Below, in pieces: positions 37,902 through 44,441 of a stretch of DNA of 64,000 nt. Position numbers and translations under genes: made by a program. Where the stretch lies: the sequence record PQ511151.1, one strand, 5' to 3'. Source of the stretch: Escherichia phage NHEP36. The notes under the pieces are model-generated. The model worked only from the letters and a program-made list of their open reading frames with translations, was not told where the DNA came from and did no database searches. Every line of letters starts with the position of its first letter. The stretch's first letter is position 1.

Positions 37902-38537
37902 ATGAAAACTACTCCTATTACTATCGCTATTGACGCAATCATAAAACAAGCTTCTTCTTTGGCCGCTATGGCCAAAGTAATTAGTCAAAACCCTGCTCGT
38001 TATAATGCTATTCTAGAAACTCTTCGACGCCCAGGACTTAGTAATTATGAAAGCCGAGTAATTATTACAGGTGTTGGTAAGAATGCTAATATTGCAACTA
38101 AAGCTTCTGAGACATTTGCTTCACTCGGTATCCCGAGTATGTACTTGAACACTGGGCATTATTCTCACGGTGATGCAGGATTCATTGCGCCTAATGATGT
38201 GTTGATTCATATTAGTCGTTCTGGTAAAACTGAAGAAATGATAGGCGTGGCTAAGCATCTTAAAATGATTCGTCCGAACGTCAAACAAATTCTGTTGCAT
38301 TGTAACCCAGACATTCCACAAGAAAATGAAGCCCTTTTTGATTACTCTTTCTGTACAGGCATCGCAGTAGAGGTTGATGAGAATTCTCTGGCTCCGACTA
38401 TGTCCACTACATTGTTGTTAGCGCTTATCGATACGTTTGCTATCAACCTTTCGTCTGAGCGTGGATTTACCTCTAATGACTTCCTTAAGTTCCACCCTGG
38501 CGGTGCACTAGGTGCCATGTTACGAGGCGAACAATGA
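37902..38537 (+). CDS. SIS-domain sugar phosphate isomerase (arabinose-5-phosphate isomerase KdsD/GutQ-like)
   Basis: GVGKNANIATKASETFASLGIPSMYLNTGHYSHGDAGFI...ISRSGKTEE follows KdsD-type SIS signature. Confidence 0.75.
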   Translation: MKTTPITIAIDAIIKQASSLAAMAKVISQNPARYNAILETLRRPGLSNYESRVIITGVGKNANIATKASETFASLGIPSMYLNTGHYSHGDAGFIAPNDVLIHISRSGKTEEMIGVAKHLKMIRPNVKQILLHCNPDIPQENEALFDYSFCTGIAVEVDENSLAPTMSTTLLLALIDTFAINLSSERGFTSNDFLKFHPGGALGAMLRGEQ

Positions 38538-38677
38538 AAGCAATAACAATAGGACTTTTACTATTGATGCTTGTCATGACTATCTACTGGAGCTTAACGG
38601 CTCCGGTAATGATTCCAACACTTGTAATTGGATGGATTATGATTGGACTACAAGCAAAGTATGAATGCTTTAACTAG
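38534..38677 (+). CDS. hypothetical small membrane protein (47 aa)
   Basis: ATGA-overlapped ORF read from sequence, two hydrophobic segments; occupies imm-like position. Confidence 0.35.
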   Translation: MKAITIGLLLLMLVMTIYWSLTAPVMIPTLVIGWIMIGLQAKYECFN

Positions 38678-38718
38678 AATAGTGTACAATACTCCTACTT
38701 ACCAATGAGGACCACAAC

Positions 38719-40404
38719 ATGAAAAAAGCTGTTATTCTTGGTGCTGGACTGGCAACTCGTTTGTATCCAATAACGCATCATATTCCTAAGGTGCTTGTTA
38801 ACTATAAACAAGACACTATTCTGAGCAATTTGTATACAATTTATTCTGACCTTGGCGCAGATGAAATTATTGTAGTAGTTCATTCAAAATTTGCTGAAAC
38901 TGTTCGAGCTTATTGTGAGCAAGAAGGGTTCAATGTGACTATTCGTACAGTTGATGAAGCGTATGGTTCTGCTTATGCTCTTGCTAAATTACACAAAGAT
39001 TTAGACGGCCATAATGTAATTGTTAACTGGTGTGATATTATTCCTGATTTTGGTTCATGGTCTTGGAATGTTAACGCAATCTATGTTAAGGGCGACGAAT
39101 GTCGATATAATTTCGACGGTGAAAATATCACTAACGTAGGTTCAACAGGTGGTAATGTTGTAGGAATTTATCAGTTCAAAGACTGGGAATTCTATATGGG
39201 TTCTACTGATGAGGAAATTCATGAATACTGCAAAGGACGTGATTTCGTAGAATTCCTTTACAGCGGCGCATTCAATAAATCAGAGCTTATGAATCTAATT
39301 GATTTAGGTGATATGCCTAAACTCGAAAAAGCTCATGAAGTTCGTGAACTTAATCGTAGTTTTAATGCAGTTGAAATTGGTGAAGAAACTGTAACTAAAT
39401 TCGCATTAACCGAACAGGGCCGAGCTCTTCAGAAAGATGAGATTTCATGGTATCTTAAAGTGAAATCAGATTCAGTTCCTCAGTTAGTTTCTGTTAATGA
39501 AAATAACTTTGAAATGGAACGCATTAAAGGTAAGCCGGCATTTGAATATATTAAATCCAAATCAAGTCTTGCTCGTCCACAAATTGTTGATGCAATTTTA
39601 GATGCACTGAAATTCAGCACAGACACTTATTTTGTAAGTCCTGAAACTGTTCGCCGTGATTTCACTAAAGAATTCTATACTAAAGTTATTGATCGTTGTG
39701 AAAGTATTCAACCATTGATTGATTCATTTGGTAAAATCACACATGTGAACTACACTAAGATTGGGCGTCTGAAGCCGATGTTGAAACAAGCTTTAGAACA
39801 CCTTATTCGTTATCATAACCGTTCTCAGGGACAGTACTCTGTTATTCATGGTGACCCGAACTTCAGTAATACTATGATTACTGATAATGGCGAAGTCAAG
39901 TTTATAGACCCTCGTGGATATTTTGGTGAAACCAAGATTTACGGGCCAAAATTGTACGATGAAGCTAAAGTGCTTTATGCTGTTTCAGGTTATGATGAAT
40001 TCAACGCTAATCCGACATGGGGACAGTTTACTATTGACGAAACAAGTTGTAATGTGACTATTAACATCAATCCATTAATTTACAAATATGGAAAGCTGAG
40101 TTCGTTTAACGAGTATCATCATTTGGCCGTAGCAATTATCTGGATTGCATTAGGTGGTTATTTCAAGAATAATCCACTTAAAGCGGTAGCCGCATATTAT
40201 AAAGGTATGGAACTTCTGACTAAGCAATTACGTAACATGGGCCGTGTACTTCAAGACGGCTCTATTAGTTATGACGTAGCAGAACCTGTAACGGCTACTC
40301 TGATTACAAAAAATCCTGGTAAATGGGTACTAACTGATAAAGAAACTGGTGTTTCCTATCGTCCAATCGGTGGCGATATCACTCATCAATGGGAACGAAT
40401 CTAA
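38719..40404 (+). CDS. bifunctional sugar-1-phosphate nucleotidyltransferase / sugar kinase-like protein
   Basis: N-terminus MKKAVILGAGLATRLYP (NDP-sugar pyrophosphorylase G-x-G-x-R motif); C-terminus HGDPNFSNTMITDNGEVKFIDPRGYFG (APH/choline-kinase-like catalytic loop). Confidence 0.75.
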   Translation: MKKAVILGAGLATRLYPITHHIPKVLVNYKQDTILSNLYTIYSDLGADEIIVVVHSKFAETVRAYCEQEGFNVTIRTVDEAYGSAYALAKLHKDLDGHNVIVNWCDIIPDFGSWSWNVNAIYVKGDECRYNFDGENITNVGSTGGNVVGIYQFKDWEFYMGSTDEEIHEYCKGRDFVEFLYSGAFNKSELMNLIDLGDMPKLEKAHEVRELNRSFNAVEIGEETVTKFALTEQGRALQKDEISWYLKVKSDSVPQLVSVNENNFEMERIKGKPAFEYIKSKSSLARPQIVDAILDALKFSTDTYFVSPETVRRDFTKEFYTKVIDRCESIQPLIDSFGKITHVNYTKIGRLKPMLKQALEHLIRYHNRSQGQYSVIHGDPNFSNTMITDNGEVKFIDPRGYFGETKIYGPKLYDEAKVLYAVSGYDEFNANPTWGQFTIDETSCNVTININPLIYKYGKLSSFNEYHHLAVAIIWIALGGYFKNNPLKAVAAYYKGMELLTKQLRNMGRVLQDGSISYDVAEPVTATLITKNPGKWVLTDKETGVSYRPIGGDITHQWERI

Positions 40405-42992: not shown

Positions 42993-43891
42993 TGGCTATT
43001 TTCCGCGTACCTATCTTGAGTATGCGGTCTTATGAAACTGGACAGTATGCTATCCTTAAGGATGGCAACTTCCAACTTCATTTGCACCGTGCTAATCCGG
43101 GTGATGTGATTACATATCCACGTAATGCATCTGATATTAAAGAATGTGAACGTCTTTTCCCAGAATTTAAGTTTGTTCCATTATGGTATAAAGATAACGC
43201 GTATAACACTCGTAAATATTTCTGGTCTGAAAATGAATTTGTGGTTGATTCATTAATTGATTATTATGATTGTGATTTTCTAATCACAGATATCACTGGA
43301 TATGACGGAGCTTTTGATGTAGAATTCAATTTCAATATCACTGCAGACCCTAATAAACCACGTTTTTATATTGATGAATTCTTAAAAACCGACATGTTGT
43401 CGGTTAATCGTTCACTTCAAACTACTGTGTTGAATGAACGTCAAAAGGAAGTGCTGGTTAACGCTGGTGCAGATGGTAATAAGATTATCGTAACCCAGAA
43501 AGTTATACGTCCTTCCATCATGCAGCGTCTTGTAGGTGATTTGGCTCCTATTCATCTAGATGGTATTTTTCATCCATTTCGAATTAGTGACCCGTGCTAT
43601 CGTTTTGAACAAGTGGTTGAATGTGCAATTCAATTAGGTCAACCGCTTTATGTAACCGATCCAAATAATAGCTTCGATAGAAATAAGTATCCTGAAGAAG
43701 CGCTGATTAGAATTTTTAATCCAACTAAAACCGAGTACTATCAAATTCTTAAAGGACGGCCGAAGATTCAATATTTCGAAAATCCTGAAGAAGTATTCCA
43801 TCCAGGTCTTGGTGAGTTCATCTACTTTAACGCTTTAATTTCTTCGCCGTATAATATACCTAAATATGAAGATGTCGTAATCGAGGAATAA
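42992..43891 (+). CDS. hypothetical protein (candidate DNA sugar transferase, beta-gt position)
   Basis: ORF track 299 aa; no motif recognised; positional inference only. Confidence 0.5.
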   Translation: MAIFRVPILSMRSYETGQYAILKDGNFQLHLHRANPGDVITYPRNASDIKECERLFPEFKFVPLWYKDNAYNTRKYFWSENEFVVDSLIDYYDCDFLITDITGYDGAFDVEFNFNITADPNKPRFYIDEFLKTDMLSVNRSLQTTVLNERQKEVLVNAGADGNKIIVTQKVIRPSIMQRLVGDLAPIHLDGIFHPFRISDPCYRFEQVVECAIQLGQPLYVTDPNNSFDRNKYPEEALIRIFNPTKTEYYQILKGRPKIQYFENPEEVFHPGLGEFIYFNALISSPYNIPKYEDVVIEE

Positions 43892-43892
43892 A

Positions 43893-44441
43893 ATGGCTAA
43901 AATTATTTTAGTAGATGGCCCGGATAATGCCGGTAAAACAACTTTCATTAATGACATAATGGAAATTAGTGAAAGATATGTAAAAATTGATTTCCCTAAA
44001 CGAACAGTTGATGGACGTTTCGATGTTAAGTCTCGAAATGAAGTTGGCTGTTTCGAAACGATGTTGAATTATTTAGACCCTACTAAGATTTATCTGTTAG
44101 ACCGTGGATATATTAGTAACTGGGTTTATGGACGTATTCGACAAGATGCGGACTCGGTTCTTGACGTTTATGAACAGGATTATGTTCGTCTTTGCCAAAA
44201 CCATGATGTGTTCACAATTATTTTAACACGTAACGAAATGACTGAAAGTTTTGAAGACGACCTTATTACTTTGTCTTCATTCGGTTTTAATACAGTCATT
44301 TCACATTTTGAAGAGTTTGCAATTCATAACAAAATCCAAACGTATCAATTACTTAATCATGATGGTGCTAACAGAGTTATAGGATTTAATGCAAGCGAAC
44401 GTAATGATTTGATTACAGAAATTATCAAATGGGCTCGTTAA
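43893..44441 (+). CDS. P-loop nucleotide kinase-like protein (thymidylate/dNMP kinase fold)
   Basis: Walker A GPDNAGKTT and LDRGYIS resemble TMK-type kinases. Confidence 0.55.
   Translation: MAKIILVDGPDNAGKTTFINDIMEISERYVKIDFPKRTVDGRFDVKSRNEVGCFETMLNYLDPTKIYLLDRGYISNWVYGRIRQDADSVLDVYEQDYVRLCQNHDVFTIILTRNEMTESFEDDLITLSSFGFNTVISHFEEFAIHNKIQTYQLLNHDGANRVIGFNASERNDLITEIIKWAR

Follow-up and report, generated by a model that had tools for sequence, protein, structure and literature searches.

A predicted arabinosyl-5-hydroxycytosine gene cluster in Escherichia phage NHEP36 and a possible oxygen-independent role for its U32 protein

The DNA analyzed here, referred to as the window, is a stretch of 64,000 nucleotides from Escherichia phage NHEP36 (sequence record PQ511151.1). 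Between DNA polymerase gene 43 and uvsX it carries a block of + strand genes that, judged by homology, very probably encodes the pathway by which Mosigviruses of the RB69 type substitute mono- and di-arabinosylated 5-hydroxycytosine for the cytosine of their virion DNA. The function of this cluster has already been published for RB69-like phages, where it was proposed in 2018 and characterized in 2025–2026. Our analysis adds a concrete assignment for one substantial cluster gene left unexplained in the published accounts, which encodes a protein of the peptidase U32 family.

The gene cluster between gene 43 and uvsX

An earlier note on this DNA had described seven + strand genes between gene 43 and uvsX, in the slot where T4 holds imm, 42 and beta-gt. 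A check of the open reading frames (ORFs) of the window recovered all seven where the note had placed them. The T4 slot indeed contains the three genes named, within the order imm.1, imm, 42, beta-gt, segA. The gene list itself was incomplete: a 76-aa ORF and a 36-aa ORF had been overlooked (Table 1). The cluster genes are tightly packed, with the nucleotidyltransferase-kinase and HAD genes sharing 16 nt, the U32 gene and gp49 sharing 4 nt and the genes of the thymidylate synthase (TS) homolog and the glycosyltransferase (GT) sharing 1 nt; a gap of 1 nt separates the GT gene from the Tmk-like gene. The GC content of the block is unremarkable, and in a scan of the cluster promoter- and terminator-like sites were no commoner than in shuffled sequences.

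The 6.5-kb block matches 208 phage records, 151 of which cover at least 80% of it at 95–99% identity. It is therefore a conserved gene set and not a chance arrangement. Its closest nucleotide relative is vB_EcoM_TU01 (98.4%), and RB69 follows at 97.6%. Protein identity to RB69 is 97.7–100% across the cluster, apart from gp49 (89.9%, with a 3-aa indel). Based on these nucleotide and protein identities, the window is assigned to Mosigvirus and the block equated with RB69 gp45–gp55.

In the RefSeq record of RB69 (L001, 4819-6505 and 9102-10002), the nucleotidyltransferase-kinase (ORF053c/052c) and the GT (ORF047c/046c) are each represented by two coding sequences. These splits have been ascribed to sequencing errors (PMC6024577 for 53:52; PMC13326640), and the corresponding 561-aa and 299-aa ORFs are intact in the window. 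The same record labels gp51 a 'phosphoheptose isomerase' and gp50 a 'peptidase', and these annotations have spread to many related genomes.

Two observations concern the slot itself. A homolog of T4 imm (63.9% identity) lies on the + strand about 4 kb downstream of the cluster; imm has been relocated from its T4 site beside gene 43 rather than lost. Genes for Seg-like homing endonucleases occur inside the modification cluster of Serratia phage LC53 (L005, 4352-4990), between the HAD and U32 genes, and of Proteus phage PM2 (L013, 3714-4397), between the U32 and chorismate mutase (CM) genes. The modification block is a hotspot for mobile endonucleases, like the same slot in T4 with its segA.

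Table 1. Genes of the cluster, its flanks and related features elsewhere in the window
Coordinates	Strand	Length	Assignment	RB69 counterpart and remarks
35150-37861			DNA polymerase, gene 43	upstream flank
37902-38537	+	211 aa	D-arabinose-5-phosphate isomerase, SIS domain only, without CBS	gp55, 100% amino-acid identity
38567-38677	+	36 aa	hydrophobic peptide MLVMTIYWSLTAPVMIPTLVIGWIMIGLQAKYECFN	translation identical to ORF054c
38719-40404	+	561 aa	bifunctional nucleotidyltransferase and APH-like kinase, AfhE-type	gp53:52, one ORF here
40389-40790	+	133 aa	HAD-like phosphatase, AfhF-type	gp51
40832-42007	+	391 aa	peptidase-U32-family Fe–S protein (Pfam Peptidase_U32)	gp50
42004-42234	+	76 aa	protein of PHROG 8601 (unknown function)	gp49; its ATG overlaps the U32 stop codon by 4 nt
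42276-42992	+	238 aa	5-hydroxy-dCMP synthase, TS superfamily	gp48, 99.2% identity
42992-43891	+	299 aa	GT-B glycosyltransferase, 'arabinosyltransferase 1'	gp47:46, one ORF here
43893-44441	+	182 aa	Tmk-like P-loop nucleotide kinase	gp45
44541-45713			uvsX	downstream flank
48592-48837	+		homolog of T4 imm	
63497-64000	+	168 codons (N-terminal)	second DNA arabinosyltransferase	ORF003c homolog; ends at window edge

Sugar, base and transfer enzymes of the predicted pathway

The chemistry of RB69 DNA has been revised since it was first described. Arabinose on RB69 DNA was first reported in 2018 by Thomas et al., who took it as arabinosyl-5-hydroxymethylcytosine (arabinosyl-hmC) from high-performance anion-exchange chromatography (HPAEC) and matrix-assisted laser desorption/ionization (MALDI); as candidates they named ORF055c and ORF53_52c for the synthesis of UDP-arabinose and ORF003c for its transfer (PMC6024577). 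Using mass spectrometry (MS) and nuclear magnetic resonance (NMR), Lee et al. (Nucleic Acids Research, 2026) identified the base as 5-hydroxycytosine carrying beta-D-Araf-(1-3)-alpha-D-Araf (Araf, arabinofuranose) through an ether bond at C5 (PMC13326640). They report that gp48 and a deoxynucleoside monophosphate (dNMP) kinase suffice for 5-hydroxydeoxycytidine (5hodC, 243 Da) to appear in E. coli DNA, that the oxygen derives from 18O2 and that the enzyme binds flavin mononucleotide (FMN). A 2026 study in Applied and Environmental Microbiology found the mono- and di-arabinosylated nucleosides 5-ara-dC and 5-ara-ara-dC in Mosigvirus NP and called the hmC assignment for RB69 erroneous (PMC13390438). 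The earlier note had proposed a DNA-hypermodification island with an arabinose-type sugar, which agrees with this published pathway (PMC13326640; first proposed in PMC6024577).

All three enzymes expected of a phage-encoded NDP-arabinose route appear to be present, as judged by domain matches and by 96–100% identity to their RB69 or HY126 orthologs. The SIS protein matches Pfam SIS (1e-10), the NCBIfam families KpsF/GutQ (2e-32) and KdsD (7e-31) and PHROG 5670, 'arabinose 5-phosphate isomerase' (4e-116). In the 561-aa protein, residues 3–99 match Pfam NTP_transferase (8.5e-10) and residues 308–409 give weak matches to kinase families; the protein also matches NCBIfam uridylyltransferase families and is 96.1% identical to its counterpart in phage HY126. 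The 133-aa HAD protein has no Pfam match; it matches the NCBIfam capsule-biosynthesis phosphatase family TIGR01689 (2.4e-13) and PHROG 1238 (7e-43), and contains an FDVDDC (DxD) motif. Its true start may be an internal ATG. According to He et al. 2026, as cited in PMC13326640, HY126 AfhE acts both as an arabinose-5-phosphate kinase and as a UDP-arabinose pyrophosphorylase, and AfhF is a Mg-dependent phosphatase on arabinose-1,5-bisphosphate. The enzyme classes that the earlier note had invoked for a route from ribulose-5-phosphate to NDP-arabinose (SIS, fused kinase/nucleotidyltransferase, HAD) hold up; its order of steps has to be replaced by the published one, in which the kinase (arabinose-5-phosphate to arabinose-1,5-bisphosphate) is followed by the phosphatase and then by the uridylyltransferase (PMC13326640).

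The resemblance of the SIS protein to KdsD and KpsF, and the match of the HAD protein to a capsule-biosynthesis phosphatase family, could also be read as signs that the sugar genes serve host-surface or capsule/3-deoxy-D-manno-octulosonate (KDO) metabolism during host takeover and have no part in DNA modification. We give this reading a negligible chance: the sugar genes are co-linear and overlapping with those of the 5hodCMP synthase and the DNA glycosyltransferase, UDP-arabinofuranose is the reported product of their orthologs, and virion DNA has been found to carry arabinose (PMC13326640, PMC13390438).

Within the sugar branch, the slot between the SIS and nucleotidyltransferase-kinase genes is occupied by the ORF054c-type peptide. 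The same slot holds a small ORF in Dhakavirus JS98 (orf44, whose annotation notes a resemblance to RB69 orf054c) and, in LC53, a gene for a 47-aa protein with a predicted transmembrane segment. ORFs of this type may encode a small membrane peptide that is conserved within a cytosolic pathway.

The TS homolog matches Pfam Thymidylat_synt (2.4e-15) and is the only relative of T4 gp42 in the window (24.8% identity). It differs at 3 of 238 residues from the structures 9iqc and 9ir2 in the Protein Data Bank (PDB), which presumably represent the flavin-bound HY126 enzyme, given their date and the account in PMC13326640; on the HY126 enzymes, and on a crystal structure with bound flavin, that paper refers to He et al. 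2026. When aligned to E. coli ThyA and T4 gp42, the protein retains the catalytic C146 and shows L143E, N177D and D169N, the last of which is the published signature of 5hodCMP synthases (PMC13326640). The T4-type Asp at ThyA position 169 (the Asp179 region of T4 gp42) is thus replaced by Asn. The combination E143/C146/N169/D177 recurs in 11 of 11 other cluster TS homologs that we aligned, from Serratia, Acinetobacter, Shewanella, Klebsiella, Proteus, Yersinia and Dhakavirus phages and three jumbo-phage contigs.

The earlier note had taken this protein for a divergent dCMP hydroxymethylase that supplies hmC as the acceptor. Neither part survives comparison with RB69: the published base is 5-hydroxycytosine in ether linkage, and the gp48 data describe a hydroxylase dependent on FMN and O2 (PMC13326640). 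That arabinosyl-hmC is nevertheless formed, through a divergent hydroxymethylase and a transferase so far unrecognized, is extremely unlikely. Such a scheme could draw on the 2018 assignment from HPAEC and MALDI (PMC6024577) and on N177D and L143D/E, which the TS homolog shares with T4 gp42. For RB69 it is already refuted. It conflicts with the ether link directly to C5 seen by NMR and MS and with the formation of 5hodC by gp48 using 18O from O2 (PMC13326640), with the rejection of the hmC assignment in PMC13390438, with Asn in place of the T4 Asp at position 169, and with the near-identity to the presumably flavin-bound HY126 structures.

The 299-aa protein has neither a Pfam nor an NCBIfam match. 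Its AlphaFold2 (AF2) model (pLDDT 94.9) adopts a GT-B fold, and the best Foldseek matches are UDP-Glc:tetrahydrobiopterin (BH4) glucosyltransferase (9v0w, 1.2e-7) and MshA (3c4q, 1.4e-6), by which we classify it as a GT-B glycosyltransferase, on the strength of the modeled fold. A role of this protein type as DNA arabinosyltransferase is proposed in Table 1 of PMC13326640. A second candidate lies at the end of the window, where RB69 p003 aligns by tblastn with 99.4% identity over residues 1–168; its arabinosyltransferase role is proposed in PMC6024577 and in Table 1 of PMC13326640. The earlier statement that no glucosyltransferase homolog could be recognized therefore needs correction on two counts, the GT-B fold of the 299-aa protein and the ORF003c homolog, while no relative of T4 beta-gt was found in the 64-kb window (tblastn, best E = 1.1). 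The Tmk-like protein features a GPDNAGKT P-loop and matches PHROG 761, 'thymidylate kinase' (3.6e-45); RB69 gp45 is listed as a 'nucleotide kinase' in PMC13326640, and on other phage contigs the relatives of GT, TS and U32 likewise have Tmk-like genes nearby.

Taken together, these proteins would form two converging branches. On the base side, the TS-superfamily enzyme would hydroxylate dCMP at C5 with FMN and O2, and 5hodC would then enter DNA via a dNMP kinase and replication, as demonstrated for RB69. On the sugar side, the SIS isomerase would convert ribulose-5-phosphate to arabinose-5-phosphate, as expected from its family. By analogy with the HY126 orthologs (96% identity in the case of the 561-aa enzyme), the kinase domain of that enzyme would then form arabinose-1,5-bisphosphate, the HAD phosphatase would remove the 5-phosphate and the nucleotidyltransferase domain would convert arabinose-1-phosphate and UTP to UDP-arabinofuranose. 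The GT-B enzyme would place the first arabinose on the 5-hydroxyl of the DNA base and the ORF003c-type enzyme would add the second, both roles being proposed from the fold.

Compared with RB69 gp45–gp55 and the HY126 'Afh' system (Thomas 2018; Mahler 2025; He 2026; Lee 2026), the window has the same genes in the same order at the same site between gene 43 and uvsX, the same TS signature and the same second transferase beside gene 39. The differences from RB69, namely the split 561-aa and 299-aa genes of its record and the 3-aa indel in gp49, are of no visible functional consequence. The glucosyl-hmC system of T4 (gp42, alpha-gt, beta-gt) shares the slot and the general logic: a TS-superfamily enzyme generates a C5-oxygenated dCMP, which is incorporated by replication and decorated on DNA by GT-B enzymes. 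T4 relies on 5hmC, methylene-tetrahydrofolate and D169, whereas the window system would use ether-linked 5-hydroxycytosine, FMN/O2 and N169; T4 draws on host UDP-glucose, whereas UDP-arabinofuranose would here be made by phage enzymes. Acinetobacter phages DLP3 and DLP1 and Dhakavirus JS98 share the nucleotidyltransferase-kinase, HAD, TS (N169), GT and Tmk-like genes, and DLP1 also has the SIS gene, but all three are without U32 and the CM/gp49 slot. DLP1 and DLP3 have two extra GTs, and DLP3 DNA is tri-arabinosylated (PMC13326640).

Two points weigh against the pathway assignment. It is derived from near-identity to RB69 and HY126, and the roles of the arabinosyltransferases, the SIS protein and the Tmk-like kinase are predictions even in the published work (PMC13326640). 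Arabinosyl-5-hydroxycytosine makes phage DNA resistant to CRISPR nucleases as well as restriction enzymes and opens new sensitivities to defense systems, which makes it relevant to phage therapy and its DNA-modifying enzymes relevant as tools.

The U32 Fe–S protein and its gene neighborhoods

The Cys-rich 391-aa protein, listed as an unknown in the earlier note, belongs to the peptidase U32 family (Pfam Peptidase_U32, 42.2 bits vs a cutoff of 22.4, E 7.5e-11). The ORF finder placed its start at GTG 40832. The true start, from a comparison with most phage matches and with the subfamily consensus (MNxFKLG...), is probably the in-frame ATG 40847, at which these begin. A sequence search of the PDB returned no match. 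The AF2 model (pLDDT 92.3) has the U32 protein 5d88 as its best PDB match, the others being generic TIM barrels, and the fold comparison gave no further clue to function.

U32 is the most conserved protein of the region, with 83% identity to its counterpart in LC53 and 79% to that in Shewanella phage Thanatos-2, compared with 79/71% for DNA polymerase, 70/68% for UvsX and 72/54% for the nucleotidyltransferase-kinase. All 221 phage matches are at least 80% identical. Ten cysteines are invariant in 56 homologs extending down to 47% identity; they include C197, C208, C214 and C238 and a C-terminal CX4CX3CX2C cluster. In a profile alignment, the essential C176 of RlhA (YSGQCYISH) falls on C214 of the phage protein (YRDSCYIFH). 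The phage spacing is CX10CX5CX23C vs the canonical CX6CX15CX3/4C, and MAFFT and HMM alignments differ on the register. Identity to the characterized U32 hydroxylases (RlhA, TrhP, UbiU, UbiV) is 16–22%. Pairwise BLASTP comparisons with RlhA and UbiV were non-significant, and the protein falls into no characterized equivalog subfamily, the best NCBIfam match being UbiU at 18.4 bits vs a cutoff of 440. From these sequence comparisons we assign the phage U32 proteins to a separate subfamily that resides on phage and phage-like contigs. Table 1 of PMC13326640 labels gp50 'Sugar or heterocycle reductase', without accompanying text. We found no literature tying U32 to phage DNA modification, although He 2026 and Mahler 2025 may hold data on gp50.

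In Winklervirus (LC53, Virsaitis27), Marfavirus F48, Bragavirus, Tegunavirus and Thanatos phages, an AroQ chorismate mutase gene lies between the U32 and TS genes. The CM_2 scores for LC53, AmPh_EK29, Proteus PM2, Yen9-01 and Thanatos-2 are 32.8–46.8 bits vs a cutoff of 27. The invariant residues of the phage enzymes (R, R, K, E, S, Q) correspond to the catalytic set of the E. coli chorismate mutase EcCM. By tblastn the phage CM occurs in 54 phage records; in all of the matches listed, its neighbors bear the annotation peptidase, thymidylate synthase or dCMP hydroxymethylase. The cluster of Thanatos-2 is rearranged, yet U32 and CM have moved together and kept their 4-nt overlap. Acinetobacter phage DLP1 is without U32 and CM, and its HAD gene abuts the TS gene. 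None of the 221 phage matches to U32 is in an Acinetobacter phage, seven of the organism names behind them being accounted for as Pectobacterium, Erwinia, Shewanella, Mosigvirus, Kosakonia, Morganella and 'phage', and 57 Acinetobacter phages have the nucleotidyltransferase-kinase. A rule by which U32 would occur only with facultatively anaerobic hosts holds by half, since JS98 grows on E. coli and is without U32.

In the window, the place of the CM gene is taken by the 76-aa gp49, which has no NCBIfam match and no Pfam match even at E<=10. We rejected it as a detectable decayed CM (hhalign to the phage CM profile, probability 0.1%). Its similarity to the LC53 CM is confined to the first ~17 residues (M..R/K..NH..NE), which it has in common with the N-terminal extension of that protein. 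At 89.9% identity to RB69 with its indel, it is the least conserved and fastest-evolving gene of the block. It may be what is left of a lost CM gene. In Klebsiella phage Marfa this slot is empty.

Among 268 U32 homologs, we examined seven distinct contexts outside T4-like phages. Six are phage-like contigs, most of them with a PolIII-alpha-type replicase, and the seventh (L017) looks bacterial or prophage-like. In all seven, U32 stands among deoxynucleotide and DNA-glycosylation genes (Tmk-like kinase, dCMP/dCTP deaminase, uracil-DNA glycosylase (UDG), NT5C, deoxynucleoside kinase (dNK), nucleoside deoxyribosyltransferase), and in none is there a TS-family or CM gene within 8–10 kb of U32. Three contexts have a homolog of the 299-aa GT family directly upstream of U32 (L021, E 1e-36; L027, 5e-26; L028, 1e-32), which overlaps the U32 start in L027 and L028. 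L027 also has a gene for a TAGT-like transferase, into which the U32 stop extends, and encodes UDP-galactopyranose mutase close by. In L021 the gene after U32 encodes a 3-deoxy-D-arabino-heptulosonate 7-phosphate (DAHP) synthase (237 bits vs 63 for KDO 8-phosphate synthase).

Three jumbo T4-like contigs of 122–383 kb present the alternative arrangement. There the 299-aa GT family is coupled to Flavodoxin_2, TS (N169) and a Tmk-like kinase, without U32 (L024, 8426-11576; L025, 1978-11682, with an added SIS protein and APH-type kinase; L026, 8739-11594). This suggests that in these phages Flavodoxin_2, of the FMN reductase family, serves the 5hodCMP synthase as its dedicated flavin reductase.

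A candidate role for U32 in oxygen-independent hydroxylation

Several members of the U32 family serve in hydroxylation. RlhA is required for 5-hydroxycytidine (ho5C) at C2501 of 23S rRNA and needs prephenate and Fe–S clusters. TrhP is a prephenate-dependent alternative to the O2-dependent TrhO for 5-hydroxyuridine (ho5U) at U34 of tRNA. In anaerobic ubiquinone synthesis by UbiU and UbiV, which contain [4Fe-4S] clusters, prephenate is the oxygen donor (PMC10990095).

Drawing on gene neighborhoods and on this family precedent, we propose, at slightly less than even odds, that the phage U32 subfamily comprises prephenate-dependent, O2-independent pyrimidine C5 hydroxylases that act on deoxynucleotides or DNA. 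In Mosigviruses U32 would be a back-up for anaerobic conditions, supplying the same 5-hydroxypyrimidine when O2 is scarce, beside the FMN/O2-dependent TS homolog. In sister genera the phage's own CM would feed the oxygen donor, prephenate. In PolIII-alpha-type phages without a TS homolog, U32 alone would make the hydroxyl handle for DNA glycosylation. Paired routes of this kind have precedents in TrhP/TrhO, UbiUV/UbiIHF and the phage's own NrdDG/NrdAB.

The conservation, cysteine pattern and distribution of U32 described above count as evidence for this proposal, as do its neighborhoods. Because the GT family is paired with either the flavin TS enzyme or U32, the two would seem to do the same job. 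CM adjacency in five genera and the DAHP synthase of L021 point to prephenate chemistry. The deaminases adjacent to metagenomic relatives hint that these may act on dUMP. As another candidate reason for a phage CM we considered CmoA and carboxy-S-adenosylmethionine (Cx-SAM); no CmoA-like gene was recognized in the cluster gene lists and domain matches, in which no dedicated search for it was made.

The phage proteins share with RlhA, TrhP, UbiU and UbiV a Pfam U32 domain above threshold, invariant cysteines in the motif region and a genomic link to prephenate, and the product of RlhA (ho5C2501) is the ribonucleoside counterpart of the base needed by the phage. They differ in forming a distinct subfamily with other Cys spacing and an extra C-terminal cluster, and their substrate would be a deoxynucleotide or DNA. 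A functional parallel is offered by the TET/5mYOX and TAGT systems, in which the hydroxyl group that an oxidase installs on DNA is the handle for decoration by a glycosyltransferase. U32 of L027, flanked by overlapping GT genes of which one is TAGT-like, stands in the position that a TET dioxygenase has there. TET is an O2/2-oxoglutarate dioxygenase on 5-methylcytosine (5mC), whereas U32 has an unrelated fold and, by family precedent, would be O2-independent.

Several points count against a hydroxylase role or limit it. As of 2024, no U32 enzyme had been reconstituted in vitro (PMC10990095). U32 is dispensable for aerobic 5hodC synthesis (PMC13326640). It is absent from JS98, a phage of E. coli, so that host physiology is no strict predictor of its presence. 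Finally, neither Pfam nor the CM profile detected a CM in the 76-aa protein of the window's own lineage, and Mosigviruses would therefore depend on host prephenate.

The published label 'Sugar or heterocycle reductase' (Table 1 of PMC13326640) raises another option, that U32 is no hydroxylase and acts as an Fe–S redox helper, either an electron-transfer or reductase partner to the 5hodCMP synthase, whose FMN it would reduce, or a reductase of a sugar or heterocycle. The ten invariant cysteines would suffice for two clusters, and the flavin enzyme requires a source of reduced FMN (PMC13326640). We nonetheless regard this as improbable. RB69 gp48 and a dNMP kinase yield 5hodC in E. coli without U32 (PMC13326640), and DLP1/DLP3-type Acinetobacter phages and JS98 have the pathway without it. 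The dedicated flavin reductase beside TS is Flavodoxin_2, and where it occurs U32 is absent. Conversely, U32 beside the GT family without TS within 8–10 kb has no nearby flavin enzyme to serve. Its coupling to CM and DAHP synthase points to prephenate chemistry, and the DNA products of RB69 (with U32) and DLP3 (without) contain no extra reduced group (PMC13326640).

The family name and most GenBank annotations make U32 a peptidase, or collagenase, and 5d88, the one relative with a solved structure, entered the PDB as a peptidase. That the phage protein is a peptidase, or an auxiliary gene product outside DNA modification, is very unlikely. All four E. coli paralogs (RlhA, TrhP, UbiU, UbiV) are tied to hydroxylation, and every T4-like lineage with a U32 gene has this gene within the modification operon. 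In Thanatos-2 it changed place along with CM, and its relatives reside in deoxynucleotide and DNA-glycosylation neighborhoods.

Should U32 prove to hydroxylate cytosine in the absence of O2, this would explain the full DNA modification of gut phages in anoxic hosts. The phage protein would then be the first hydroxylase of its family whose substrate, a small molecule or DNA, is handy for reconstitution in vitro, which is lacking according to PMC10990095, and the widespread U32 and glycosyltransferase module of uncultured phages would represent a new class of DNA hypermodification.

Four of the phage-like contexts (L016, L019, L022 and L028, with U32 at 8001-9086 or 10001-11086) have further genes in common. 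Radical SAM proteins, GT-like proteins of ~330–400 aa and Tmk-like kinases recur in them, in an order that varies around the PolIII-alpha replicase and U32. L019 and L022 encode UDG as a fusion with the replicase, L016 has it as a gene of its own, and dCMP deaminase is present in L016 and L019. In L016, L019 and L022 U32 is followed by a ~250-aa protein with weak epimerase-like matches; we rejected it as a DAHP synthase of the L021 type (17–24% identity). The ~400-aa neighbor of U32 has no similarity to RB69 ORF003c, as a relative of which it had been considered. The arrangement looks like an uncharacterized DNA hypermodification cluster.

In the seventh context (L017, 5135-15428, on an 86-kb contig with a GH43/dockerin gene), U32 lies near NT5C, a PnuC-type transporter and dNK; a nucleoside 2-deoxyribosyltransferase, a second divergent U32 and a protein of the radical SAM/SPASM type complete the group. 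An anaerobe, or a prophage in it, could use such a cassette for modification or salvage at the level of nucleosides.

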